Virus record (IMG/VR): IMGVR_UViG_3300002092_001784
Span: 32,001 to 96,000 of that record
DNA from: a virus
Lineage: Duplodnaviria; Caudoviricetes
Strand: one strand, 5' to 3'
DNA length: 64,000 bases
A program made the position numbers and the translations under genes. Of this stretch, positions 6,096-57,578 are shown piece after piece (the stretch's first letter is position 1; each line of letters starts with the position of its first letter). The notes below the pieces were generated by a model, which made no database searches, was not told the origin of the DNA, and was given only the letters and a program-made list of their open reading frames with translations.

Positions 6096-6926
6096 ATGGC
6101 TATTAACTTAGATGCAATCAGAGGTAGACTGAACAAACTACAAACGACCACAAGGACATCGGTGGAAACTTGGAAACCCGCACCGGGAAAATATCAAATC
6201 CGATTAGTTCCGTATAAGTTCAACAAAGAAAATCCATTCATTGAACTTTACTTTCACTACAACATCAACAACAAAACGTATCTGTCACCAATTTCATTTG
6301 GTAGACCAGACCCTATTGTTGAGTTCGCTGAAAAACTGAAAAGAATGGGTGACAAAGAAGATTGGAAGGCCGCAAAGAAAATGGAGCCGAAACTTCGGAC
6401 ATTCGTACCTGTATTGGTAAGGGGTGAAGAAGGTGAAGGAGTTCGTTTTTGGGGATTTGGAAAAACCGTATACCAAGACCTGCTTGGGTACATTGCTGAT
6501 CCCGATTATGGTGATATTACTGATCCAGAAACAGGTAGGGATATTATCGTTGAAATTGTATCAGCTGAAGATTCTGGTACTTCGTATCAGCAAACCAACA
6601 TTAGGGTTAAACCTAAAGAAACACCATTATCGGAAAAAGCAGAAGATGCCAAACGGTTTCTTGATTCACAAAAAGAGATTACTGAAATGTATTCTGAATT
6701 AACATATTCAGAATTAAAAGGTATTCTTGAAGGTTGGTTAAATCCATCGTCTGAATCTGATGATACTGATGTGCCATCACCATCGGCTGAAGTGTTATCT
6801 TCAAAACCGGCTGAAACCGCTAAAGCAACTCACGTTGCAAATGAAACCGCAAATTCAACACCTACATCTAATAACAAAAAATTAGATGATGTTGGTTCTG
6901 CGTTTGATGAACTGTTTAACAAATAA
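6096..6926 (+). CDS. single-stranded DNA-binding protein (T4 gp32-like)
   Basis: WKP..G...IR..PY, WGFGKTVY and GRDI motifs; acidic tail DDVGSAFDELF. Confidence 0.85.
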   Translation: MAINLDAIRGRLNKLQTTTRTSVETWKPAPGKYQIRLVPYKFNKENPFIELYFHYNINNKTYLSPISFGRPDPIVEFAEKLKRMGDKEDWKAAKKMEPKLRTFVPVLVRGEEGEGVRFWGFGKTVYQDLLGYIADPDYGDITDPETGRDIIVEIVSAEDSGTSYQQTNIRVKPKETPLSEKAEDAKRFLDSQKEITEMYSELTYSELKGILEGWLNPSSESDDTDVPSPSAEVLSSKPAETAKATHVANETANSTPTSNNKKLDDVGSAFDELFNK

Positions 6927-13289: not shown

Positions 13290-13493
13290 ATGGGAGTGTT
13301 AAGAGGTGAGTCTCATCCGTCAGCAAAGTTGACGGATGAGCAGGTTTTGCAAATAAGAAAGTTATGGAATATGGGGCATCGAAACCTAAAAGTGATTGCC
13401 CGTAATAATCATGTATCGCCTGCAAATATTATGAAGATTATCCATTTCAAAACTTGGACACATCTAAATGAATTTTGGTCTGGAAGTTTATAA
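13290..13493 (+). CDS. small helix-turn-helix DNA-binding protein (NUMOD-like)
   Basis: RGESHPSAKLTDEQVLQIR motif typical of endonuclease-associated HTH domains. Confidence 0.6.
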   Translation: MGVLRGESHPSAKLTDEQVLQIRKLWNMGHRNLKVIARNNHVSPANIMKIIHFKTWTHLNEFWSGSL

Positions 13494-13508: not shown

Positions 13509-13547
13509 ATGAGTTACAAAGGACAAATAAAATTAATGTTTTTGTAA
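13509..13547 (+). pseudogene. orphaned original 5' end of the MTase gene (MSYKGQIKLMFL*)
   Basis: 27/32 nt identical to 14190-14221 (MNYKGQIKLI). Confidence 0.7.
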
Positions 13548-13603: not shown

Positions 13604-14227
13604 ATGGAAACCGATAAACGCAAATTGTACAATCAAAGCTGGGAAAACCTAAAACTAGGACCAATTGGTGCATCTGAAAAGGCTAAAATCAATGGTATAT
13701 ATAAAAATTGTTTGAATTGTAACAAAGAATTTAGAGTATCACATTCTACCAGCAAAAAGAAATTTTGTAGTAAAGAATGTAAAGCAATAGGTCAATCATC
13801 TGGATTAACTGCACCAATGAGGTATGGAACAGGTAGAACAGCCATTCAAAAAATTATAGCTAATAAATATAATAGATATGTTTCGAAAGATGGTAATATC
13901 GGAATAAGTCGAACTGATTTTATTAAACTGATAGAAAGTGGAGAATGTTATTATTGTGGGTCTACCGTAACTGAAACTTTAGGATTTGATAGAATAGATA
14001 ATACAAAAGGTCATATAATTGGTAATGTCCTTATTTGCTGTGAGTTGTGTAATACAACAAAAGGGCATCGCTATTCAGTCGAACAAATGAAACAGTTGGG
14101 AAATTTAATAAAAACATTTAATTTGGATGGCTGGAGAACAATGGGTGAGTTACAATTGACAAAAATGAAAAAAACAAACGAAACGTTATATGAATTACAA
14201 AGGACAGATAAAACTGATATTGGGTGA
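13604..14227 (+). mobile_element. free-standing HNH-type homing endonuclease gene
   Basis: N-terminal CxxC..FCSxxC zinc finger; CYYCG...GFDRIDN..GH..GNV..CC..CN HNH-like core; flanked by duplicated MTase starts. Confidence 0.8.
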
Positions 14228-15587
14228 TTGTTTAGATAAGCTAAAAGAATTAGATGACAATTCCGTAGATAGTATCGTTACAGACCCACCATATGGATTG
14301 TCAGCAGCCAAAAATAGTGGTAACTCTTCGAAAGGTGGCTTTATGGGAAAATTGTGGGATTATGATGTCCCAACACAGGCCATTTGGGAGGAATGTCTAC
14401 GTGTATTAAAACCCGGAGGTCACCTATTGGCATTTGCAGGTAGTAGAACTTATCACCGAATGGCAGTTAGAATTGAAGATGCTGGGTTTGAAATCCGAGA
14501 TCAGATAATGTGGATATATGGAAGTGGATTTCCTAAGTCTATGGATATATCAAAACAGATTGATAAAAAGGCAGGAGTAGAAAGAGAAGTTATTGGACAA
14601 AAAATTAGAGGAAGTGTTGATTTGGCAAAACAATCTGGATCAACCTACGCCGTAGCAGATGCTAACAAGAATAATAAAGCTATATTTGGATATGGTGTGG
14701 AAAATTTAACTAAACCCGCAACCGATGGCGCAAAGAAATGGGAAGGTTGGGGTACTGCTCTTAAACCGGCACACGAACCAATAGTAATGGCACGCAAACC
14801 GATAGAAGAAAATACTGTTGCTGATAATGTACTAAAGTACGGAACTGGTGGTATAAATATAGATGGGTGTCGTGTTGAAACTGATGATAAATTAGATGGT
14901 GGCGCTACAAATGGTTCTGTATTGGATATTGATGGATTTGACAGACCGTGGATGCATGATGATGAAAAGATGATTGAGTTTCAACAAAAAATGCAAGATA
15001 AGGTCGAACATGCACAGAATTTAGGTAGGTTTCCCGCTAATGTTATTTTGGATGATGTTGCGGGCGAAATAATGGATGAACAAAGTGGTGTTACAAAAAG
15101 TGGAAAAATAAAGGAAGATAAATCGGCATATGATGGAGAATCAACCACTGGATTTTTAAGAGGTGTTAGTAATAGTACCAATCAGCATGGAGATACCGGC
15201 GGAGCATCTCGATTCTTCTATTGCCCAAAAGTATCAAAATCCGAAAGAAACGAAGGATTGGGTGGATTTGAACTAACTTCGGTTGAACCAAAACAAAACT
15301 TTCATCCTACCGTGAAACCAACAGACCTAATGGCATATTTGATTAGATTAGTGACACAACGTGGTGGTATCGTTTTAGACCCATTTATGGGTAGTGGTAG
15401 TACTGGTAAGGCAGCGGTGCGTGAAGGTATGAATTTTATTGGAATTGAAATGGAGCAGGATTATTTTGAACTTGCTGAAGCTAGGATTGATTGGGAAACT
15501 GAAAATCCGATGAAACCGAATAAAAAGAAATCAAATCCATTACTACCAACACCAACAAATAACACAGTTGAAACCGATTATTGGTAA
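14190..15587 (+). CDS. DNA N4-cytosine/N6-adenine methyltransferase (beta class)
   Basis: DSIVTDPPY motif IV; HPTVKP; VLDPFMGSGSTG motif I. Confidence 0.92.
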   Translation: MNYKGQIKLILGDCLDKLKELDDNSVDSIVTDPPYGLSAAKNSGNSSKGGFMGKLWDYDVPTQAIWEECLRVLKPGGHLLAFAGSRTYHRMAVRIEDAGFEIRDQIMWIYGSGFPKSMDISKQIDKKAGVEREVIGQKIRGSVDLAKQSGSTYAVADANKNNKAIFGYGVENLTKPATDGAKKWEGWGTALKPAHEPIVMARKPIEENTVADNVLKYGTGGINIDGCRVETDDKLDGGATNGSVLDIDGFDRPWMHDDEKMIEFQQKMQDKVEHAQNLGRFPANVILDDVAGEIMDEQSGVTKSGKIKEDKSAYDGESTTGFLRGVSNSTNQHGDTGGASRFFYCPKVSKSERNEGLGGFELTSVEPKQNFHPTVKPTDLMAYLIRLVTQRGGIVLDPFMGSGSTGKAAVREGMNFIGIEMEQDYFELAEARIDWETENPMKPNKKKSNPLLPTPTNNTVETDYW

Positions 15588-15591
15588 TTAA

Positions 15592-15623
15592 TTTGGTAAT
15601 GTGAAATATTTTTTGTATATTTG
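15592..15623 (+). promoter_or_regulatory. Bacteroidota sigma-70-type promoter
   Basis: TTTG-N20-TATATTTG. Confidence 0.75.
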
Positions 15624-15638
15624 AATAAATTATACAAT

Positions 15639-15935
15639 ATGGCAAAACAAGCTGATAACAGTAAAGACAAGTATGAATTAATTTTTGAAGATGAACAAGC
15701 CGTTTCCATTTGGAAATATGATCTGTCCAAAACTAAAGGTGGACCAATATCAGTAGAGTACAAATGGAAGGCCAGTTTCTTGAAAGAAGTAGAAGCAATT
15801 CGGAAAGCAGAAAGAGATGCTAAGAAAACGAAAAAATCAACTTTAGAGTTGGCAAGAGAAGCTAAGAAAAAGAAATCATCCGCAGAAAAAAAGCAAGAAA
15901 AGAAAGATAAATTTGACAAAAAGTTTTGGGCATGA
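15639..15935 (+). CDS. hypothetical protein with lysine-rich C-terminus
   Basis: ATG 15639 downstream of the promoter; ATGA-coupled to the next gene. Confidence 0.65.
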   Translation: MAKQADNSKDKYELIFEDEQAVSIWKYDLSKTKGGPISVEYKWKASFLKEVEAIRKAERDAKKTKKSTLELAREAKKKKSSAEKKQEKKDKFDKKFWA

Positions 15936-16732
15936 GAGAAGATGGTAAGAATTATTGTGATGTTTCAAAAGTGTATATTGCTCCAATAGCCAAAAACATT
16001 GCCAAAGATATTATTGTACAAAAGCATTACACACATGCGTGGACAGCATGCCGATACGCATTGGGTATTTACTATAAAGCAGAAGATTCATATACTTTTG
16101 GTGGTGATAAATTGATAGGGTGTCTTATTTACGGATTTCCTGTTGGAGTTCAAGCAGCAACTTCGATTTGTGAAGGACTTAGTAAGGATAATGCATTAGA
16201 ATTAACCCGTTTATATTGTGATGATGGTTATGGCTCAAATATTGAATCATACGCAATCGGACAATCATTCAAATGGCTGAAAGAAAATGATAAAAACATC
16301 AAACTACTTTTATCATATGCAGATGCAGGACAAGAACATTTAGGTGGTATCTATCAGGCTACCAACTGGATATATCAGGGAACATCAGCAGATATAGCAT
16401 TAATGCCTAATTGGAGAATATCATTACACAATGACCCATATGATTGGATTCACAGTAGGACTGTATTCTCAATGTGGGGTAGTGGTAATTTAGACCACCT
16501 AAAAAGGGAGATCGGTAAGCAAGGGTATAAAGAGTTCTGGCGAAAAATGGAATCGCCTAAACACCGTTATATTCAAATACTTGCGCAAGATAAAAAAGAA
16601 AAGAAGGAATTGATGAAGAAACTCAAACACGAAATCAAACCTTATCCAAAGAGTACCGATGAATTTAATACTGAAATAGTTCATCATTTAACAACATACG
16701 AAGTGCCTGCTGGGGCTGAAAACTTTTGGTAA
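15932..16732 (+). CDS. Mom-like GNAT-fold DNA modification protein
   Basis: KHY...GFP...LELTRL...NIES..I..SF..LK...LLSYAD..Q.H.G.IYQATNWIYQG pattern. Confidence 0.75.
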   Translation: MREDGKNYCDVSKVYIAPIAKNIAKDIIVQKHYTHAWTACRYALGIYYKAEDSYTFGGDKLIGCLIYGFPVGVQAATSICEGLSKDNALELTRLYCDDGYGSNIESYAIGQSFKWLKENDKNIKLLLSYADAGQEHLGGIYQATNWIYQGTSADIALMPNWRISLHNDPYDWIHSRTVFSMWGSGNLDHLKREIGKQGYKEFWRKMESPKHRYIQILAQDKKEKKELMKKLKHEIKPYPKSTDEFNTEIVHHLTTYEVPAGAENFW

Positions 16733-16735
16733 CAT

Positions 16736-16791
16736 TTAACATTAACTTAACATTAAAAGTTTGGAAAGTCAAAATAAATGTTGTATATTTG
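16736..16791 (+). promoter_or_regulatory. extended promoter: TTAACA direct repeats plus TTTG-N20-TATATTTG
   Basis: TTAACATTAACTTAACATTAAAAGTTTGGAAAG; same layout as 53267, 57619 and 57729. Confidence 0.75.
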
Positions 16792-16812
16792 AATATAATC
16801 ATTGGGAGTTAT

Positions 16813-17739
16813 ATGGATCATGAATTTTTAAGATTAAGTTACGAAGAACAACAACGATATGTTAATATGGTGGCTGGCTATCTACTGAGCGCTATAAAGC
16901 GTAGTGCAAAGGGTGCAAAAGATAAAGATCGAACTTCTGGTCGAATGGATGCTTTGGCCATTACAATTACATTAGATGATTTAAAAAATAAATTATGGAA
17001 ATCAAATTGCTGTTGTTCCATTACTAGAAAGCCGTTTCCAATTGTAGATAGTTCTGTATATTTTTCGAAGTCCAAGGCACGTTCAATTGGAAACTGTGGG
17101 TTAGAATCTCCATCGGCAGACCGAATTGATTCGGCTGGATTTTATTCAAACGAAAATGTTCAGATAACATATAGGTCAATAAATCTATTAAAATCAACGT
17201 ATTCCAACGAAGAAACAAATACTCATTTATTAAAAATAAACACAAACCCTATGAACGTAAATCAGTTAAAAACAAACACAAATCGTATGAATCATCCAGA
17301 AGTTTTAAGAGAATTGGTATTAACTTTACCATTTGAACAACAAACCCAAGTCATAACTTTAATCGGTCGAAATGATATTGAAAACGCTGATTTTGTGAAT
17401 GGTATGAAAAAGTTGTTTGGTTATATTGGTGTGAATGTAAATCGAATTACTTCGAATGTAACCAATACACATATTAAAAAGTATAAATCAAAAGATGTAA
17501 AACCGATTGTCCGATATATGGAAGACAACTCCAAATTAATATCTAATATTGATAATTCTTATATTAATGTTTCCAAATTACATGTGGGGAAGAACGGTAC
17601 TGATAAATACAGATTGGCATCATCAAAAATAGGTAATCTGATTATGGAAAATAAACCACAACTATTCAAAATTTGGGCAACTAACAATAAATTTGATTTT
17701 TTAATCAAAAAATCAGATTATGATATTTTAATTGGCTGA
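16813..17739 (+). CDS. HNH-like nuclease domain protein with unknown C-terminal half
   Basis: CCSIT...SPSADRIDSAGFYSNENVQITYRSINLLK; start refined to ATG 16813 after the promoter. Confidence 0.6.
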   Translation: MDHEFLRLSYEEQQRYVNMVAGYLLSAIKRSAKGAKDKDRTSGRMDALAITITLDDLKNKLWKSNCCCSITRKPFPIVDSSVYFSKSKARSIGNCGLESPSADRIDSAGFYSNENVQITYRSINLLKSTYSNEETNTHLLKINTNPMNVNQLKTNTNRMNHPEVLRELVLTLPFEQQTQVITLIGRNDIENADFVNGMKKLFGYIGVNVNRITSNVTNTHIKKYKSKDVKPIVRYMEDNSKLISNIDNSYINVSKLHVGKNGTDKYRLASSKIGNLIMENKPQLFKIWATNNKFDFLIKKSDYDILIG

Positions 17740-17768
17740 TACTAAACTAAAACAATTATGAAATATTG

Positions 17769-18884
17769 ATGAATTTTTGGGAAGGTCAAATTAGTAAAGA
17801 TGCTAGAAAAGTGTTGGTGATACCGAATATCACCAACTCTAGCAATATAGAGAAAGATTCATTCGTAGATGTTATTTACAACCACATAAAGGGGTTAGAG
17901 CAATACGGTGAATACTTTTGGAATATCATATTGCCAGAACCGGTTAAGAAGTTGAATTTACCCAATGTAAAGCAACATGTCTTACCATTTTCTGGTGATA
18001 TGATAAAAATGCGTACATATCCACCTGATATGAATCGTATTCTTGAGCAAGTAGACTATGATGTAATATATTCACATTTACCCGATTGGCCGCAGGTTGG
18101 TAGATACCGAAACAATTTTGATACAAAAATAATTGGGTATTGTCATTGGTGGGAAATGAAAACTTGCAATGCGGAAGATCGAAAGAATAAATGGCGATGG
18201 TTACCAGTTGAATTGTTAGGTATATCACAAATGGAAACTTGTTATTTGAATACTCAAGATCAAAAGAATAGAGTTTTAGCCGAAGCAAGTGATACTTTCA
18301 ATAGTGAGTTTGTTGCTAAATTAGACTCAATATTAACAGTATGGAATTTGGGATTACCAAAAGATAAAATAGTTGATAACGCATCAAATGATAAATCTAA
18401 CATAATCGTATTCAATCATAGAGCAGCTGCATATAAGGGATATCCTGATTTTATTAAGTTGATGGTAGAGTATCGTGAAAAAAGACAAGATTTTAGCGTA
18501 TGGGTGCCTCAATTAAATGGTACTCCATCTGAAAATTGGATTGATAATACGAAGATGCCAAAGCATGAATATTATAAACGATTACAGCAATGTAAGGTTG
18601 GTGTGCAGATGAGGCAAACTAATTACGGTTGGAGTGTATCGGGTACAGATTGCATGATGAACGGTACACCTATGATTTTTCAAGATTCCCTTTGTTATAG
18701 AGAAATAGACCCAAATGGTATGTTTTTCAAATACAAAAAAGACTTTTTCGAAATGTTGGACAAAATGTTAGATGATGAATCTTTCAGAAAAGAACATGAA
18801 GTTAGGAGTATAAATAGAGCAATCGAACTTTCAGCCAATGAAGGTATAATGCTTGCTGAATTACACAAAAAACTAAATAGCTAA
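17769..18884 (+). CDS. GT-B fold glycosyltransferase, candidate DNA glycosyltransferase
   Basis: IVFNHR...KG and GWSVSGTDCMMNGTP (GT4-like); coupled to PolB. Confidence 0.7.
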   Translation: MNFWEGQISKDARKVLVIPNITNSSNIEKDSFVDVIYNHIKGLEQYGEYFWNIILPEPVKKLNLPNVKQHVLPFSGDMIKMRTYPPDMNRILEQVDYDVIYSHLPDWPQVGRYRNNFDTKIIGYCHWWEMKTCNAEDRKNKWRWLPVELLGISQMETCYLNTQDQKNRVLAEASDTFNSEFVAKLDSILTVWNLGLPKDKIVDNASNDKSNIIVFNHRAAAYKGYPDFIKLMVEYREKRQDFSVWVPQLNGTPSENWIDNTKMPKHEYYKRLQQCKVGVQMRQTNYGWSVSGTDCMMNGTPMIFQDSLCYREIDPNGMFFKYKKDFFEMLDKMLDDESFRKEHEVRSINRAIELSANEGIMLAELHKKLNS

Positions 18885-21406
18885 TGGCATATCAAAACAT
18901 TTATTTTCAGAGAAATCAAAATCTAATGCACATTTGGGATGATCATCGGGGATATAGGACATTTCCGTATTCTCGTTATGCATATCAAAAAGACCCAAAT
19001 GGACAATTTACGTCTTTATATGGCGATAAACTTACTAAAATTTTCAAATTTTCAAAGGATGATCCAAATTTATTCGAATCCGATGTCCCAGAAACTACAC
19101 GGGTTTTGGTAGATACATATACGGATAGTGATTTACCATCGGAAGGACATATCATTTTAACATATGATATTGAGGTTGAAATGGATTCCGGTCTTCCTGA
19201 TGTTCAGAAGGCTGAAAATGAAATAACTGCTATTGGTTTGCATGATTCTGCTACAAACCATTATTGGGTATTGATTATGGATAAAGCCGGTAAGATGGAT
19301 GGTGTTGAAACTGGAAACCGAACCGTTATACCGTTTAGATACGAAGATGATTTATTATTAAAATACATTGATTTGTATGAGGAAATAAATCCAACAATCG
19401 TTACTGGATGGAATATTGATAATTTTGATACTCCGTTTTTATACAATAGAATAAAAAGATTATTGGGTGAGAAGCAAGCCAATCGTTTATCGCCGATTGG
19501 TGAGGTGTTCTGGTCACCATATCGTAAACGATATTTTATTGCCGGTGTATCTTATTTGGATTACATTGAATTGTATAAGAACTTTACATATTCGGAGTTA
19601 GCAAATTACCGCTTGGACAGTATTGCTAATATCGAATTGGGTAGAGGAAAACTTGAGTATACTGGAAATTTGGATAACCTGTTTAAGACAGACCCTAATA
19701 AGTTTATAGAATACAACATTACTGACGTTGAGTTGGTGGTTAGTATGGATGCTAAATTACAATTCATTGATTTGTGTAGAGGTATATGCCATGCAGGCCA
19801 CGTTCCGTATGAAGATTTTGTATATTCATCGAAATACCTTGAAGGCGCTATTCTTTGTTATTTGAAACGAAGGGGTATTGTTGCTCCTAACAAACCTGCG
19901 GATAGGCAGGAAAGGATGCAGGCTCTTAAAGATAATGAGCAAGAAAAGTTCATTGGTGCATATGTGAAGGCACCGATAGTTGGTAAGTATGAATGGGTGT
20001 ATGACTTAGACTTAACATCGCTATATCCATCTATCATTATGGGTGTAAATATATCACCGGAAACCAAAGTTGCTAAGATTTCGAATTGGGACTCTTCAAA
20101 GTATATGAAGGGCGAGATTGATACATTTAATATTGATGGACAATCCATTACCAACGATAACCTTAAACTGATGTTGCAAGAGGAAAAATATACTATTTCA
20201 TCAAACGGTGTATTATATCGGACAGATAAAGTAGGTTGTATACCTGATATTTTGGATTTATGGTTCAATCAGCGTGTTGAATTTCGTAAGTTAGAAAAGA
20301 AATACGGTGAAGAAGGTGATAAGGTACAACATGCATTTTATAAAAGGAGACAGCATGTTCAGAAGATTTTGCTTAATTCACTTTATGGTGTATTAGGTTT
20401 GCCAGCGTTTCGTTTCTACGATGTTGATAATGCAGAAGCAGTTACAACTTCTGGGCAGATGGTTATTAAATCAACTGCGGATATGGCTAACATCAAATAT
20501 AACAAAGAATTGGGAACGGGTGATGCAGATTATAATATTTACATCGATACGGATTCCATTTTCTTTAGTGCAGTGCCGATTTTGGATTTCCGATATGCGG
20601 ATTGGAGAAGTGGTACTCAAGAAGATATAGCAAAATTGGTTGATACTGTTGCAGGTGAAACGCAAGATTATCTGAATAATTTTTATAACATTTTAGCGGA
20701 GAGGGTATTTAATATTCCAAAAGGTAAACATCGTTTTCAGATTAAGAAAGAGTTTGTATCCAGAAGTGCAATTTGGTTAGCTAAGAAACGATATGCTATG
20801 GCAATTGTAGCTGAAAATGGATTACCAATAAATAGGTTGGATGTAAAGGGATTAGACGTTGTACGTTCATCATATCCTGCACAGTTCCGTAAATTTATGA
20901 GTGAGGTATTGATTGATATTCTGAATGGTAAAACAGAAAATGAGTTGAGTGATAAGATATATTACTTTAAGTTGGACCTTAGAAATATGGATGCCGTTTC
21001 AATAGCTAAAAATTCGGCAGTAAAAGAATTATCGAAGTATATTCCGAAAGGAAAGCAAACGGCAATGTTTCGATTTAATTCCGGTACTCCTGCGCATGTG
21101 AAGGCGGCAATTGCATTTAATCAATTAATTAAACATTTTAATTGTCCTACAAGTATTGAACCAATGCGTGATGGTGATAAGATAAAATGGATGTATCTGA
21201 AACAAAATCCGTATGGGTTGGATGCCGTTGGGTTTAAGGGATACGAAGACCCGACAGAAATAATTGAGTTCATAAAAACATATGCTGATTATGATGAAGT
21301 ATTTGAACGTGAACTTCTAGGTAAGTTGGAAGATTTCTATACCGCATTGAAGTGGGGTTCGCCGTTAGGTAGCACGAAAGTCTCAGAACAATTTTTTCAA
21401 TTTTAA
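18884..21406 (+). CDS. polB: family B DNA polymerase (T4 gp43-like)
   Basis: TYDIEV ExoI, DLDLTSLYPS, KILLNSLYG, YIDTDS, KKRY, KGLDVVR. Confidence 0.97.
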   Translation: MAYQNIYFQRNQNLMHIWDDHRGYRTFPYSRYAYQKDPNGQFTSLYGDKLTKIFKFSKDDPNLFESDVPETTRVLVDTYTDSDLPSEGHIILTYDIEVEMDSGLPDVQKAENEITAIGLHDSATNHYWVLIMDKAGKMDGVETGNRTVIPFRYEDDLLLKYIDLYEEINPTIVTGWNIDNFDTPFLYNRIKRLLGEKQANRLSPIGEVFWSPYRKRYFIAGVSYLDYIELYKNFTYSELANYRLDSIANIELGRGKLEYTGNLDNLFKTDPNKFIEYNITDVELVVSMDAKLQFIDLCRGICHAGHVPYEDFVYSSKYLEGAILCYLKRRGIVAPNKPADRQERMQALKDNEQEKFIGAYVKAPIVGKYEWVYDLDLTSLYPSIIMGVNISPETKVAKISNWDSSKYMKGEIDTFNIDGQSITNDNLKLMLQEEKYTISSNGVLYRTDKVGCIPDILDLWFNQRVEFRKLEKKYGEEGDKVQHAFYKRRQHVQKILLNSLYGVLGLPAFRFYDVDNAEAVTTSGQMVIKSTADMANIKYNKELGTGDADYNIYIDTDSIFFSAVPILDFRYADWRSGTQEDIAKLVDTVAGETQDYLNNFYNILAERVFNIPKGKHRFQIKKEFVSRSAIWLAKKRYAMAIVAENGLPINRLDVKGLDVVRSSYPAQFRKFMSEVLIDILNGKTENELSDKIYYFKLDLRNMDAVSIAKNSAVKELSKYIPKGKQTAMFRFNSGTPAHVKAAIAFNQLIKHFNCPTSIEPMRDGDKIKWMYLKQNPYGLDAVGFKGYEDPTEIIEFIKTYADYDEVFERELLGKLEDFYTALKWGSPLGSTKVSEQFFQF

Positions 21407-21409
21407 TAT

Positions 21410-22372
21410 ATGAAAGTTACAGTTGTAATTAGAACATATAATAGGACTGATTTTTTGAAGCAGTGTCTTGCTTCAGTGAAGTTGCAAACACATACCGATT
21501 GGGAAGTTTTAATATTTGATGATGGTGGTAGTGATGCTAATTTTGAAATATACAATAAATTTAAGGCAGAAAATTCCGATAAACGAATAGTATATCTAAC
21601 AACACACACTGCGTATGAACTATTTTGTAATTCATGGTTACTTGCTCCCAATTTGGCAACGGGTGATATTATGGTTAGGTTGGATGATGATGATCTATTA
21701 GCAGAAGATTGTTTGAGTTACATATCCGATTTATATGAACGAAATGAAGATTTAGATTTCACATACGGAACTGCGGTTACATTTGATGGTGATAATCTTA
21801 TGACTATGATGGATACAATGAATCCACAAGAAGCACCTAAAACTCAAACTGCATGGGCTGGTTATACTATACCAAATAATCATCCATGGAGAGACCCGTT
21901 TTGTTGGTATGAGAATTATTATGAAGAACCTCAACCATTTACATCTATAATCCATTGTAGTAAATCGAATATAATGTGCATTTATCATTTATATTCAATG
22001 AGAACTGAATCGGTCAGACGTGTGAAGGATAAGATTACAGTAACTTCTAAATATGTAGATGATTTGGAATTTTTAGGAAGTTTGGATTATTTGGGATTAA
22101 CACATACATCAATACATAAAATACTTTCTTATGTTAGAGAGCATGATACAGGTAGGGTATCTGATAGGGGTAAGTTAACCGATGGTACTACATTGTGGGA
22201 TGATATACTGAGAATTAGAGATAAAGTAGATTATTTAAGACCTGCTGGATTTCAATCAAGAGTAATACCAATCAACGCAACCAATAATACCAATAACGGT
22301 ATTACCTATGAGTTACAAAATACGTTCTCACACTATTATAGTAGAATAAAATTCAAATCTTTAGTATATTAA
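21410..22372 (+). CDS. glycosyltransferase family 2
   Basis: VVIRTYNR, LIFDDGGSD, RLDDDD. Confidence 0.85.
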   Translation: MKVTVVIRTYNRTDFLKQCLASVKLQTHTDWEVLIFDDGGSDANFEIYNKFKAENSDKRIVYLTTHTAYELFCNSWLLAPNLATGDIMVRLDDDDLLAEDCLSYISDLYERNEDLDFTYGTAVTFDGDNLMTMMDTMNPQEAPKTQTAWAGYTIPNNHPWRDPFCWYENYYEEPQPFTSIIHCSKSNIMCIYHLYSMRTESVRRVKDKITVTSKYVDDLEFLGSLDYLGLTHTSIHKILSYVREHDTGRVSDRGKLTDGTTLWDDILRIRDKVDYLRPAGFQSRVIPINATNNTNNGITYELQNTFSHYYSRIKFKSLVY

Positions 22373-22404
22373 TTTGGAAATACGAATAATTTTTCGTATA
22401 TTTG
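22373..22404 (+). promoter_or_regulatory. Bacteroidota sigma-70-type promoter
   Basis: TTTG-N20-TATATTTG upstream of the clamp gene. Confidence 0.75.
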
Positions 22405-22439
22405 TACAGAATATAAAATTTAACAATAAACTTTGAAAC

Positions 22440-23135
22440 ATGAAAAGAGCAAAACTCGATGGTTTTATTAATCGTTACAATTTGGGTGGCGAAATTGAGT
22501 CTGTTATGATTAAATCAACAGATGAAAAATTATCAGTCCGTATGATTTCGGATGATAAAACATTATTGGGAACAGTATCTATGTTGGATACTGAATTTCC
22601 TACGGGAGAATTTGGAATTTATACAACTTCCCAATTGAAGGGATTACTGAATGTATTGGATGATGGCATCACCGTAGAGGAAGTTACAGGTGCATTAAAA
22701 TTTTCGGATAAGAAAACCAAAATGCAATATATGTTGGCAGCGCCATCGGTTATTCCATCCGTACCAGAACTTAAAGCATTACCTGCATTTGAAGCAGAAA
22801 TTGCATTGAATGATGAATTTGTAAATAAGTTCATTAAATCTACCGGAGCATTATCTGATTCTCTTACATTTACATTCACCTACAAAAAAGGTGTTGGTGA
22901 GATTATTTTAGGATATTCATCTATCAATTCAAATCGTATTGCTATTGATACTGATACGAAATCGGAAGTTGATATTGAACCAATTGCGTTTTCATCAAAA
23001 TATCTGAAAGCTATTCTTAATGCAAATCGGGGTGCTAAAACATCTTCATTGAAGATTTCATCTAAGGGGTTGGCAGCTGTTTCATTTGAGGCAGATGAAT
23101 ATACTACCCAGTATTATCTTGTTGAAGTAAAATAA
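22440..23135 (+). CDS. DNA polymerase sliding clamp (T4 gp45-like)
   Basis: 231 aa; FGIY...L..LL and YMLAAPSVIP patterns; replisome context. Confidence 0.75.
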   Translation: MKRAKLDGFINRYNLGGEIESVMIKSTDEKLSVRMISDDKTLLGTVSMLDTEFPTGEFGIYTTSQLKGLLNVLDDGITVEEVTGALKFSDKKTKMQYMLAAPSVIPSVPELKALPAFEAEIALNDEFVNKFIKSTGALSDSLTFTFTYKKGVGEIILGYSSINSNRIAIDTDTKSEVDIEPIAFSSKYLKAILNANRGAKTSSLKISSKGLAAVSFEADEYTTQYYLVEVK

Positions 23136-23150
23136 TTAAAATCATAAAGT

Positions 23151-24365
23151 ATGAATTTTTGGGATACTGAACCACAAACACCTGTTTTTGATTTTGATAT
23201 TGAAAAACAGAAATTGATTGAAAATATGGATTATCTGTTTGCAATGTCCGTTCAAGAACAGACACTTTATAAAAAATGGGTGGAGCTCCAAGAACCTACC
23301 ATGCAGAAAGATAAATCCCAAATATCCACATATTATGATATGCAATGGAAACCAACCGATATCAATAATAAGGAACTAACGATTGCCGAAATTCAATCGT
23401 TAGAACCTTATGTTGAGATTGTGGATGATAATGCTGCCGAATCTACCAAATGGGCTCAAATCCGTAGAATGATTCATACAATGGATTTTACGGCAAACCC
23501 CGGTAGAAATGTGAAAATCAATGTAAAGGATAGAAAGACGGGTAAGTTATTGGGTCAAATTTCTCTTGCATCGGATGTTACATCATTGGGGGTGCGTGAT
23601 GAATATATTGGGTGGACTAAGGATGACAAATTCAAAAAAGGTAAACTGAATCACACTACCATTGCATCTACTATTGTATGTACACAGCCATTGGGATATA
23701 ACTTTTTGGGTGGTAAACTGATAGCTATGATGTGTACTGTACCTGAAGTTAGAGAACATTGGAAGAAAAAATACGATAATACTTTAATCGCAGTTGGAAC
23801 AACTTCGTTATATGGTATCAATTCTCAGTACACAGGCCTTCCACTTTTCAAAACTTTGGGTGAAAGTAAAGGTAAGATCAGTATAAAACCTGATGATAAA
23901 TTTTATGATCCATGGCACCAATGGTTAAAAGAAAATCGTACAGAGTGGTATAAGAAAAACATAACAGAAGAGCGTGAACGAAATGGCGCTAATATGGGTT
24001 ATGAACGAAATGGACCTGTTAGTGGCATCAAACAAAAGATTCTTACACAAATTTTCAAAGAGTGTGGTATTAAAGCAAATGAATATCATCACGGATTTAA
24101 GCGTGGAATTTATTTGGCTATGATGTACGAAAATGGTAATGATTTTCTTTGTGATAAAATTGGTGAAGACCAACTAAAACTTAGAGATAAGTTTGTGAAG
24201 GGAACAGATTATATTATGGAGTGGTGGAAACGACACGCTATTAGTAGATATACCAAGCTACATACAGAGGGACGTTTGAAACCGGATCATCTTTTTTACA
24301 TCAATGGTATAGGACAAGATTGGGATAGCTTTAAGGCCGAATACTTAGGAGAAGTTGGACGTTAA
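23151..24365 (+). CDS. DUF4338 / Druantia DruA-like protein
   Basis: PGRNVK..VKDRKTGKLLGQISLASDV..L..RD.YIGW and YNFLGGKLIA...TTSLYG pattern. Confidence 0.7.
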   Translation: MNFWDTEPQTPVFDFDIEKQKLIENMDYLFAMSVQEQTLYKKWVELQEPTMQKDKSQISTYYDMQWKPTDINNKELTIAEIQSLEPYVEIVDDNAAESTKWAQIRRMIHTMDFTANPGRNVKINVKDRKTGKLLGQISLASDVTSLGVRDEYIGWTKDDKFKKGKLNHTTIASTIVCTQPLGYNFLGGKLIAMMCTVPEVREHWKKKYDNTLIAVGTTSLYGINSQYTGLPLFKTLGESKGKISIKPDDKFYDPWHQWLKENRTEWYKKNITEERERNGANMGYERNGPVSGIKQKILTQIFKECGIKANEYHHGFKRGIYLAMMYENGNDFLCDKIGEDQLKLRDKFVKGTDYIMEWWKRHAISRYTKLHTEGRLKPDHLFYINGIGQDWDSFKAEYLGEVGR

Positions 24366-25324: not shown

Positions 25325-25858
25325 ATGAGTCAAACAATTAAATTATTAAAAGAAGCATTAAAAGATATAGCCGGAGATACTACCGGCTATAAAATTTACT
25401 GTGATATGGATGGTGTTCTTACGGATTTTGATAAACAATTCAAAGATATAACAGGTATACCTGCTAATGAATTTGAAAAAACACATTCTCAAACTGAATT
25501 TTGGGGAGAAGTTGAAAAGGGCGGATTGGAATATTGGACAAAAATGGAATGGATGCCGGGTGGAAAGCAGTTATGGAATTTTATTAAGAACTATGATGTT
25601 GAAATTCTATCAGCTCCATCAAAATCTAAACTTTCAATTATTGGTAAAAAGCAATGGGTATCTGAAAACCTATCACCTAAACCTAAATTGAATTTGGTTA
25701 GAGCCAAAGAAAAACAGAAGTTTGCAAATTCACACGCAATACTAATCGATGATAGACCACAAAATTTAGAACAATGGAAAGCAGCCGGTGGTATTGCAAT
25801 AAAATGTGTGAATGGTGAGGTTAGTTCAGTAATAGATAAATTAAAAAAATATGTTTGA
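25325..25858 (+). CDS. 5'(3')-deoxyribonucleotidase (HAD superfamily)
   Basis: IYCDMDGVLTDF, ILSAPS, ILIDDRPQNLEQWKAAGG. Confidence 0.85.
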   Translation: MSQTIKLLKEALKDIAGDTTGYKIYCDMDGVLTDFDKQFKDITGIPANEFEKTHSQTEFWGEVEKGGLEYWTKMEWMPGGKQLWNFIKNYDVEILSAPSKSKLSIIGKKQWVSENLSPKPKLNLVRAKEKQKFANSHAILIDDRPQNLEQWKAAGGIAIKCVNGEVSSVIDKLKKYV

Positions 25859-26792
25859 AACAGTAAACGAAAAGAAAAACAACAGTTTATGGACTGAGTC
25901 ATACCGACCAACCAAATTGGCGGATTACATCGGAAATGAACACTTAAAATCAAAAGTAGAGGGGTATTTGGAATCGGGCGATATACCTCATTTACTGTTA
26001 TATGGCAAAGCTGGAACTGGTAAGACTACATTGGCTAAATTGATTGTAAATTCAATCGATTGTGATATGATGATTATCAACGCATCTGATGAAAACAATG
26101 TTGAAACAGTTAGAACAAAGGTGAAGAACTTTGCATCGTCTATGGGATTCAAACCATTTAAGATTGTTATTTTGGATGAGTTTGATTATATGACTGCAAA
26201 CGCACAGGCGATTCTTCGTAACTTAATGGAAACATTTTCACAGCATTGCCGGTTTATCTTAACGTGTAATTATGTTGAAAAGGTAATTGAACCAATTCAG
26301 AGCAGATGTCAGACATTTCAAATCGTACCGCCAACTAAAAAAGATGTTGCAATTCGGATAAGTCAAATATTGAAAGACCAGAACATAAAGTTTGAGTTGA
26401 AGGATTTGGTTCCTGTTATTGATGCAGCATATCCTGATATTCGTAAGATTATTAATACCTGTCAACTTAATTCTATTAAAGGTGAATTGAAGGTTGATGT
26501 TCAAAATCTGTTAGAGAATGATTATAAGACCAAAATTGTGGACATTCTTACATCTAAAAATGATAAAAGAAATAAGTACATGCAATGCAGGCAAACTCTT
26601 ATTGATTCAAAGGTTACAGATTTTACCGAACTATATACGTTACTTTACGATAAAGTTGACGAATACGGCGGTGAAAATACAGCTAATATCATTTTGATAT
26701 TAGGGGAGAGTGTATATAAGAGTGCGTTGGCAATCGACAAAGAAATCATTGCTGCGGCGACAATTATTAGTATCATTAATCTGATAGGATAA
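25851..26792 (+). CDS. clamp loader AAA+ subunit (RFC/gp44-like)
   Basis: LWTESYRP, GKAGTGKT, INASDE, ILDEFD, IQSRC. Confidence 0.93.
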   Translation: MFETVNEKKNNSLWTESYRPTKLADYIGNEHLKSKVEGYLESGDIPHLLLYGKAGTGKTTLAKLIVNSIDCDMMIINASDENNVETVRTKVKNFASSMGFKPFKIVILDEFDYMTANAQAILRNLMETFSQHCRFILTCNYVEKVIEPIQSRCQTFQIVPPTKKDVAIRISQILKDQNIKFELKDLVPVIDAAYPDIRKIINTCQLNSIKGELKVDVQNLLENDYKTKIVDILTSKNDKRNKYMQCRQTLIDSKVTDFTELYTLLYDKVDEYGGENTANIILILGESVYKSALAIDKEIIAAATIISIINLIG

Positions 26793-28047: not shown

Positions 28048-28536
28048 ATGGCTAAAACTGTAAAGGAAAAAAAAGAAGTTATAAAAACAACAAAAACGTT
28101 GTTCGATCATATTAAAGCGGTTACCAACGATCAAAATCCCAAATATTGGGAAAGTTTGGACGAATCGGATAAAAAGACGTGGTCGAACTATATGATTATA
28201 CGATTTATGACTATGAATCCGGATTGGGTTGAGTTGATTTCTGAAGTACAACCGTATTTGCAAGAAGCTCCGCCTAAAGCAGTTTATAAGGCATTGATTG
28301 GTGTAATACCTAAAAGTAGGGCGTTTTTGAAGTATATGAAAGCCGCATCATCGGAAACCTATGAACAATGGGTAGTTGATTTGGTAGCTAAGTATTATGG
28401 TGTGAGTCTTATGGAAGCAGAAGATTATTTACATATTTTGTATAAGAGCCATACTGGAAAACTTCATATTAAAGAGATAGCTGAATCATTTGGAACTGAT
28501 ACCAAAAGTATCACAAAACTAAAATTAGGAGTATAA
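28048..28536 (+). CDS. probable clamp loader small subunit (gp62-like)
   Basis: Size, NYMIIRFMT motif, position near the gp44-like gene. Confidence 0.55.
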   Translation: MAKTVKEKKEVIKTTKTLFDHIKAVTNDQNPKYWESLDESDKKTWSNYMIIRFMTMNPDWVELISEVQPYLQEAPPKAVYKALIGVIPKSRAFLKYMKAASSETYEQWVVDLVAKYYGVSLMEAEDYLHILYKSHTGKLHIKEIAESFGTDTKSITKLKLGV

Positions 28537-55653: not shown

Positions 55654-55932
55654 ATGGCAGAATTAAAAGGAAAAGTGATTGCAGGTAAGGTTTTGATACA
55701 GCCTGAACAATCTGTTACTAAAACGAGCGGGGGTATTATTATCCCCGACTCTGCAAAAGAAAAACCAAACTCCGGCAAAGTTATACTTGTCGGTTTGGCT
55801 AAATCTGATGAAATAGTGGAAGTATCCATTGGGGATACTGTTTTTTATCCAAAATATGTGGGTACTGAAATTAGTATTGATGGTACTGATTATTTACTCA
55901 TATCTCAATCGGATATACTATTCATCGCTTAA
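55654..55932 (+). CDS. groS: co-chaperonin GroES
   Basis: KTSGGIIIPDSAKEKP mobile loop; GDTV; DIL. Confidence 0.95.
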   Translation: MAELKGKVIAGKVLIQPEQSVTKTSGGIIIPDSAKEKPNSGKVILVGLAKSDEIVEVSIGDTVFYPKYVGTEISIDGTDYLLISQSDILFIA

Positions 55933-55949
55933 ATTTTAATTAAAAATAA

Positions 55950-57578
<1,629 letters not shown>

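Follow-up and report, generated by a model that had tools for sequence, protein, structure and literature searches.

Terminal aromatic peptides shared by a T4-type phage DNA polymerase and neighbouring DNA-modifying enzymes as candidate sliding-clamp docking tags

Delivery of a DNA methyltransferase to the replication fork by a sliding clamp is familiar from eukaryotes, where PCNA recruits DNMT1, in its maintenance function, through a canonical internal PCNA-interacting peptide (PIP box) of the QxxΨxxFF-like type. Among phages, the closest described system is that of T4 and RB69, in which the C-terminal clamp epitopes of gp43, gp55 and gp33 are similar and interchangeable and that of gp55 is terminal, behind a divergent linker (PMC2988020); T4 DNA ligase carries an internal LDFLF (PMC6212786). 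The T4 alpha-glucosyltransferase co-purifies with the clamp gp45 (Sommer et al., 2004, as cited in PMC13216743), and a 2026 study confirmed the binding by pull-down and found that it is not the main determinant of glucosylation levels or of the alpha/beta ratio in vivo (PMC13216743). Here we describe a possible extension of this principle in the viral record IMGVR_UViG_3300002092_001784 (266,153 bp, judged complete), of which a window of 64,000 nucleotides (bases 32001-96000) was analysed. Between window positions 14190 and 24365, the genes for a T4 gp43-like family B DNA polymerase (PolB) and a sliding clamp stand among those for an N6/N4 DNA methyltransferase, a Mom-family base-modifying enzyme, a GT-B-type glycosyltransferase (GT-B) and a DruA/DUF4338-like protein, and a short aromatic peptide begins or ends the polymerase and each of these four proteins.

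To evade restriction and other nucleases, phages must modify every copy of their DNA quickly enough, and how post-replicative modifiers match the pace of a T4-type replisome has been little studied beyond the pull-down of T4 alpha-glucosyltransferase with gp45. No description of a tag shared by phage modification enzymes was found in the open-access literature, where T4 alpha-glucosyltransferase with gp45 and DNMT1 with PCNA are the precedents.

A sequence-only reading of this DNA had proposed that PolB and all candidate modifying enzymes of the cluster share a terminal aromatic peptide. The six termini are as it described: the methyltransferase ends in VETDYW, the small product of the gene at 15639 (p15639) in DKKFWA, Mom in AENFW and PolB in SEQFFQF, and GT-B and the DruA-like protein begin with MNFWEG and MNFWDT, respectively. 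The PolB tail EQFFQF, which in orthologues reads AEKFF[SN]F, KFFNFK or KFFSFGK, is taken here as the reference clamp-binding epitope. A flexible or divergent linker lies between the peptide and the catalytic body in the methyltransferase, Mom, GT-B and the DruA-like protein. The last 35 residues of the methyltransferase (431-465), rich in proline, lysine, asparagine and threonine, and the last 26 of Mom stand outside the domain; in GT-B the tag is followed by a short variable linker and then by the first Rossmann strand, VLVIPNITNS; and residues 1-11 of the DruA-like protein have a predicted local distance difference test value (pLDDT) of 31 in an AlphaFold2 (AF2) model.

Such termini are rare among unrelated proteins of the same genome. 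With a hit defined as [FY]W with the tryptophan last or penultimate, or starting within residues 2-4, five of the nine genes of the cluster score, as against 2 of the 348 other plus-strand open reading frames (ORFs) of the whole 266-kb genome, and both outside hits are dubious (a doubtful thioredoxin start and a 63-residue ORF). The p-values for this enrichment (5.5e-8 by Fisher's test; 5.7e-9 by a binomial calculation from the proteome dipeptide frequency) are approximate, because the motif was defined after the data had been seen, and conservation carries more weight. The N-terminal form, M.{0,2}F[FW][DE] in proteins of at least 80 residues, is confined to GT-B and the DruA-like protein in this genome, and to the clamp loader in a related 276-kb phage (G001). 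The proteins of the glycan locus were confirmed to lack the motif, the single look-alike being ORF 48529, which begins MSYIYWFTG. We reject it as a carrier: the start is kept in the G001 orthologue (MIYWFTG) and is probably part of the fold, IYWFTG presumably corresponding to the first strand that precedes a kinase P-loop rather than to a tail. A 1627-residue RNA-repair-like protein ending in GIFFSK, returned by a loose scan, was set aside as a chance match.

Three families, those of Mom, GT-B and the DruA-like protein, were each sampled through the 120 closest homologues in a collection of 5.8 billion proteins. Mom ends in x[FY]W-COOH in 119 of 120 orthologues (66-100% identity), most often as KFW (51) or NFW (43) and also as SFW, TFW, RFW, KYW and NYW, with YW in 6 of 120 and DFW in 1, and the ten or so residues that precede FW vary freely. 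GT-B starts with M-x(0-2)-FW-[EDNG] in 119 of 120 homologues (69-100% identity), again with a variable stretch before the conserved VLVIPNITNS, and the DruA-like protein starts with M[SNE]FW[DE][ST]EP in all 120 (at least 80% identity); a 54%-identical homologue of the latter starts MGFNDFFDEP. Conservation in orthologues, on which the sequence-only reading had staked its proposal, thus stands for these three proteins and fails for p15639, whose KFWA is missing from its homologues. Tags of this kind recur in hundreds of relatives, and we take them to be under selection.

The methyltransferase tails vary together with the polymerase tail. Among 80 homologues from IMG/VR (45-61% identity), in which the alignment stops about 20 residues short of the end, 24 finish in xFW(x) (NKFW, KKFW, QKFW, RKFW, SNFW, TNFWS), 25 in FF(x0-3) (NKFFSF, NKFFNF, NKFFG, NKFF, NQFFE and others) and 13 in Q..LF or L.DF-like peptides, and 18 fall outside all patterns, five of them ending NQFFDLKN and one (L103) SLLDFLGGV. 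At 12 loci where PolB ends in AEKFF[SN]F, the adjoining methyltransferase ends in NKFF[SN]F in 4 and in xKFW or SNFW in 8. In a T4-like genome with homologues of gp55, gp33, gp45 and gp59 (G003), PolB ends in TLEDFFS, the methyltransferase in PLMEFFS, and gp55 carries GLEKFY near its end. The L103 homologue, together with that of L065 (TLMDFNA), is T4 gp43-like at its end, and homologues from small contigs (L088-L102) end in QEKTLF, EQQLF or QQKLF, resembling the bacterial beta-clamp motif. Ten small contigs whose methyltransferase has a Q..LF or LDFL-like tail yielded no PolB match, which is uninformative, the small contigs being fragments of 18-19 kb with an estimated completeness of 47% where checked. 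These peptides suggest that the tail of the methyltransferase is adjusted to whichever clamp is present. A gene for the PolB, clamp or RFC of this clade accompanies the methyltransferase at 21 of the 49 loci where that enzyme has an FF or FW tail, and at 0 of the 31 where it has another tail (p = 4e-6), a co-occurrence that is in part a phylogenetic effect.

A sister clade, whose clamp is 37% identical, shows the same behaviour in another enzyme. There, a TGT/DpdA-like protein (PF01702) is encoded directly upstream of the clamp gene; of its 81 tails read, 79 have the form x-[F/Y]-F-K-[F/L/T] and two are FFKF plus one residue. PolB of that clade ends in KFFSFG(K), and in KFFKF in a few loci. 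Thus it is in the methyltransferase and DpdA-like homologues that the peptide is the same as, or interchangeable with, the tail of the cognate polymerase. The motif is terminal, conserved, specific to these proteins and co-varying with the PolB tail, and we regard the co-variation as the strongest evidence for a shared code. Together, the rare termini, their conservation in orthologues and the joint variation of methyltransferase and PolB tails support the earlier suggestion that several DNA-modifying enzymes share the clamp-docking code of the polymerase.

Two further carriers occur in relatives. In L010, a TET-associated glycosyltransferase (TAGT, PF20691) encoded between Mom and GT-B ends in NKFW, as does an 83% homologue. 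The gp44-like clamp loader starts with M[GA]FFE[EDQ] in 16 of 18 orthologues from the clade and with MFE here, and the M[GA]FFE extension is not present in more distant clamp loaders.

We propose that these terminal peptides represent, in variant forms, a single motif of the gp45-client type, by which the DNA modifiers would dock on the sliding clamp of the phage, and we put the probability of this explanation at about 0.68. The motif would take a C-terminal form, [K/N/Q]-[F/Y]-[F/W], placed at the protein end or followed by x-F, and an N-terminal form, M-x-F-[F/W]-[D/E]. It would be carried on flexible linkers by the T4-type PolB, by the clamp loader in most relatives, and by a changing set of unrelated DNA-modifying enzymes: the N6/N4 methyltransferase, Mom, GT-B, TAGT and the DruA-like protein, with the DpdA-like protein in the sister clade. 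Each enzyme would thereby be tethered to gp45-type clamps on newly copied DNA, which would couple modification to replication and make it processive. A possible consequence, put forward in the sequence-only reading, is that nascent DNA would be modified at the fork ahead of host nucleases. We infer the clamp as receptor from the homology with T4/RB69 gp43, gp55 and gp33. The FW and FFxF forms are presumed to use the same clamp pocket. The aromatic pair is usually followed by an acidic residue in the N-terminal form and by the free carboxylate in the C-terminal FW form, an arrangement that would suit a single pocket offering a basic contact. It is tempting to go further and to speculate that a terminal, polymerase-like clamp peptide is a general and portable 'address label', which clamp-encoding viruses would add to the DNA modifiers that they acquire and would retune to each clamp (FW/FFSF here, LxEFFS in T4-like cyanophage types, Q..LF with a beta clamp), a generalization that we hold tentatively and with the odds leaning somewhat against it.

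The receptor that the proposal calls for is encoded in the cluster. The earlier assignment of a clamp gene at 22440 was borne out by a match to phrog_223 ('DNA polymerase processivity factor', E 6.5e-11), by a confident AF2 model (pLDDT 97.0, predicted template modelling score (pTM) 0.92) and by Foldseek matches of that model to PCNA and T4 gp45 (6drt, 1czd, 3u61; probability 1.00, TM 0.72-0.78), by which the product can be identified as a sliding clamp of gp45/PCNA fold. This genome encodes both a cognate gp45/PCNA-type clamp and a clamp loader.

Several findings count against the proposed docking on the clamp or limit the support for it. In a complex prediction run with three controls, the clamp monomer (alignment of 147 rows) was paired with residues 230-266 of Mom (alignment of 20 rows). 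The ipSAE values were 0.57, 0.47 and 0.46, for a score of 0.47 that is rated 'weak support', and all three controls gave 0.00. Of 80 solved complexes, 58 pass the mark applied, as do 2 of 110 mismatched pairs; only 7 of those 80 pass it with ipSAE values of 0.60 or less, the range in which both passing mismatches lie. The clamp-Mom runs share at least 52% of contacts, the pLDDT of the partner is at least 44 (about 45), and no interface is reported. The prediction is compatible with docking and is not evidence on its own. Most clients here use FW and PolB uses FFxF, Mom, GT-B and the DruA-like protein having been seen with the FW form only. Two tails of the window are atypical, the KFWA of p15639 and the DYW of the methyltransferase, the latter nonetheless falling within the range of variants seen among Mom tails. 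Homologues of p15639 are 54-70 residues long and end in RGR or TAKS, without a KFW tail; p15639 is consequently unsupported as a tagged client, and its KFWA may have been acquired recently or be due to chance. Inside the cluster, the HNH gene at 16813 and the GT2 gene at 21410 are untagged, so that the sequence-only reading, correct for its six termini, slightly overstated its case in speaking of all candidate modifiers. Two paralogues also lack a tag, namely a second Mom and, next to PolB in L013 and L140, a GT-B of 32% identity; both keep the catalytic domain, so that the tag acts like a module that can be added. Chance matches do occur, as the LQDFF end of a T4-type baseplate protein in G003 shows. 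A second DNA methyltransferase, found by a blind scan outside the window (G000 99422-100300; phrog_67, 4e-45), ends in DNDLTFF, a tail missing from two 74% relatives, which terminate nine residues sooner; we do not count this enzyme as a carrier. Finally, tails are shared by descent among related sequences, and the counts given above are not independent events.

Among the alternatives, the one that survives best, although we consider it unlikely, is that the docking code is real and its receptor is some other hub of the replisome: the gp32-like single-stranded DNA-binding protein (SSB), the helicase, the clamp loader or a scaffold of the replication compartment. A code shared with PolB would fit any common receptor equally well, the complex prediction for the clamp is weak, and a phmmer search of this genome for homologues of T4 gp55, gp33 and RNase H, which do occur in G003, found none, so that no tagged homologue of these proteins serves as an internal control. 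The clamp is favoured over such a hub by the homology of PolB with gp43, whose C-terminal tail in T4/RB69 is a clamp epitope (PMC2988020), by the N-terminal form on the clamp loader of relatives, itself a certain clamp binder, by the clustering of the genes around the clamp gene, and by the zero scores of the complex-prediction controls.

More improbable still is that the FW termini serve the function of the enzyme that bears them, perhaps as an active-site lid, in oligomerization or by stacking against DNA or a flipped base, their likeness to the PolB tail being superficial. Tryptophan and phenylalanine can indeed stack on bases, FW is not identical to FFxF, and Mom, GT-B and the DruA-like protein never show FFSF in their 120 nearest homologues each. 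Yet the same dipeptide is found on at least three unrelated folds, at either end and behind linkers that are not conserved; one methyltransferase family has FW in some members and the exact PolB tail in others, at the same position, and its tail turns to LxEFFS where that of PolB does; and the paralogues without a tag retain their catalytic domain. The idea that the pattern arose from DNA-level signals, or by chance in a genome rich in AT, has very little left in its favour: TTTTGG contains the Bacteroidota -33 element TTTG, phenylalanine is almost always encoded by TTT, and promoter-like sites lie just after the methyltransferase (15592) and Mom (16760) genes and just before the clamp gene (22373), but the real -33 boxes are separate and downstream of stop codons, the motif occurs at N-termini too with an enrichment p of about 1e-8, and the variants YW (TAT/TAC), FF, FFSF and FFKF keep the aromatic character while the DNA word changes, an amino-acid-level pattern of substitution by which this explanation is largely refuted.

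Table 1. Genes of the polB-clamp cluster and related features, in window coordinates.
Feature	Coordinates	Strand	Length (residues)	Terminal peptide (codons)	Assignment and remarks
Conserved 67-aa protein	13290..13493	+	67	ends N[EQ]FWSGSL	weak HNH-related PHROG match
N6/N4 DNA methyltransferase	14190..15587	+	465	ends DYW (15576-15584)	PF01555, 122 bits, residues 26-430
p15639	15639..15935	+	98	ends KKFWA (15921-15932)	lysine-rich; doubtful member
Mom-family DNA base-modifying enzyme	15932..16732	+	266	ends NFW-COOH (16721-16729)	PF25680, 153 bits, residues 14-240
HNH	16813..17739			untagged	
GT-B-type glycosyltransferase	17769..18884	+	371	starts MNFWE (17769-17783)	weak GT4/GT1 Pfam matches, below cut-off
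T4 gp43-like family B DNA polymerase (PolB)	18884..21406	+		ends EQFFQF (21386-21403)	PF00136/PF03104; phmmer T4 gp43 5e-75
GT2	21410..22372			untagged	
gp45/PCNA-type sliding clamp	22440..23135	+	231		phrog_223, AF2, Foldseek; proposed tag receptor
DruA/DUF4338-like protein	23151..24365	+	404	starts MNFWD (23151-23165)	PF14236, 77 bits
gp44-like clamp-loader large subunit	25851..26792	+		starts MFETV	phmmer T4 gp44 9.5e-38
gp62-like clamp-loader small subunit	28048..28536	+			context; phrog_225 5.6e-17; phmmer T4 gp62 3.3e-6

A recognised DNA-modification domain is present in the methyltransferase and Mom and, in relatives, in the TAGT and TGT/DpdA-like proteins; GT-B has sub-threshold matches only, and p15639 has no domain, neither Pfam nor PHROG giving a match. 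The AF2 model of the DruA-like protein has a pLDDT of 62, and its top PDB look-alikes are all of GNAT type (E 0.16-0.6, none significant), with a weak Atlas hint (0.83) to 'GNAT-phage-like'. Perhaps, then, the DruA-like protein may be an acyl-transfer type of base modifier like Mom, as the model hints; an hhalign comparison of the two profiles, built on shallow alignments, gave a probability of 0.9% and does not show a relationship. In cellular genomes, a scan found relatives of the DruA-like protein on two contigs of metagenome-assembled genomes only. The Tet/JBP family gave no match in the phage genome, but its controls gave none either, and the result is uninformative.

The cluster sits inside a T4-like replication module, in a window whose genes run on the plus strand nearly throughout. 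On its 5' side lie genes for the gp32-like SSB, UvsX, a 5'-3' exonuclease, a DnaB-type helicase, a class II ribonucleotide reductase and thioredoxin, and on its 3' side those for a dUTPase, a 5'-deoxyribonucleotidase and the two clamp-loader subunits. In the closest relative, L140, the order is the 67-residue protein, a Mom paralogue, an 84-residue ORF, Mom, GT-B, PolB, clamp and the DruA-like protein. Comparison of window 15621-17739 with L140 6947-8779 shows the first Mom paralogue of that order swapped here for the HNH, methyltransferase and p15639 genes, and the HNH gene at 16813 and the GT2 gene at 21410 are not present in relatives and are therefore insertions. The modification cassette has thus been reshuffled around a fixed polB-clamp core.

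The start of the methyltransferase gene is duplicated, with MSYKGQIKLM and a stop at 13509-13545 and MNYKGQIKLI at 14190-14227 (29 of 40 nucleotides identical), and between the two copies lies an HNH gene (13604-14227) that looks like a homing-endonuclease insertion by which the start of the methyltransferase gene was rebuilt. Upstream of it, the 67-residue protein ends in HLN[EQ]FWSGSL in all relatives seen (L005, L012/L013, L140) and is encoded directly upstream of Mom genes. This protein is a possible additional bearer of the FW tag, unless the dipeptide belongs to its fold. The gp32-like SSB (6096-6926) ends in AFDELFNK (AFDDLFNN in L005), an acidic-aromatic tip that is unlike the FW/FF tag and probably serves contacts between SSB and its partners. 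Outside the window, at G000:186218-187453, a 428-residue open frame of the thymidylate-synthase family (PF00303, 1e-86) matches in two pieces and could represent ThyA carrying an insertion or else a pyrimidine hydroxymethylase that supplies the glycosyltransferases. GroES- and GroEL-like genes, judged by termini and sizes, lie at 55654-57578.

PolB is 50% identical to that of Microcystis phage Mel-JY01. Among orthologues of the proteins of the cluster, one bears the database name 'Polaribacter phage'. Promoter-like boxes of the form TTTG-N17-21-TAnnTTTG number 17 on the plus strand (including 15592, 16760, 22373, 5250, 28572 and 53190), and those directly 5' of the p15639, HNH 16813 and clamp genes are among them. 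The boxes suggest a host RNA polymerase of the Flavobacteriia type, and together with the 'Polaribacter phage' name they suggest a host among the Bacteroidota; the clade probably consists of large marine phages of Flavobacteriia.

If docking on the clamp is correct, the tag would provide a simple mechanism for replication-coupled hypermodification and a sequence rule that marks uncharacterised proteins as DNA modifiers. Should the peptide be a general address label, the proteins so marked as modifiers that act at the fork would include the DruA/DUF4338-like and GT-B proteins, with consequences for the role of DruA in Druantia defence, and the label could be used to mine new DNA modification chemistries. 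The phage clamp 'tool-belt' would be extended from replication and late transcription to epigenetic protection. The tag also yields peptides and point mutants that are directly testable.

What appears to be new is the tag sequence itself (often ending in tryptophan), its placement at the N-terminus of some proteins and the C-terminus of others, its joint variation with the tail of the polymerase, and its presence on five or six unrelated families of modification enzymes around polB and the clamp gene. The motif is minimal, with 3-4 residues, and upstream of FW only a preceding K, N, S, T or Q recurs. It resembles the canonical PIP box QxxΨxxFF in being anchored by an aromatic pair, but the conserved glutamine and the aliphatic position are absent from the 120 Mom tails. 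The bacterial beta-clamp motif QL[SD]LF is absent from the proteins of the window, Q..LF-like peptides being found only in the small-contig methyltransferase homologues. With DNMT1 and PCNA there is no relation of sequence or lineage, and the likeness lies in the recruitment of a DNA methyltransferase by a clamp-binding peptide, as proposed here.

The closest resemblance is to the gp45 clients of T4/RB69, which likewise have a short aromatic epitope at the extreme end of the protein, a flexible linker, a peptide common to the polymerase and other proteins, and a gp45-type clamp. The T4 epitopes, however, are of the form LDFL[FYL] (gp43 ends in SLDFLFG, gp55 in SLDFLYEAND and gp33 in TLDFLL), whereas the tag here is [KNQ]-F-[FW], many of its bearers end in Trp-COOH, and an N-terminal form exists; moreover, the clients here are DNA-modifying enzymes instead of transcription factors, homologues of gp55 and gp33 not having been detected in this genome. 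T4 alpha-glucosyltransferase is, in turn, the precedent for bringing together a phage DNA-modifying enzyme and a phage sliding clamp, an association that is physical in T4 and predicted here. There it concerns a single enzyme, for which no defined terminal motif is known and whose termini show no LDFLF-like tail, whereas the tag described here is common to five or six unrelated enzyme families.

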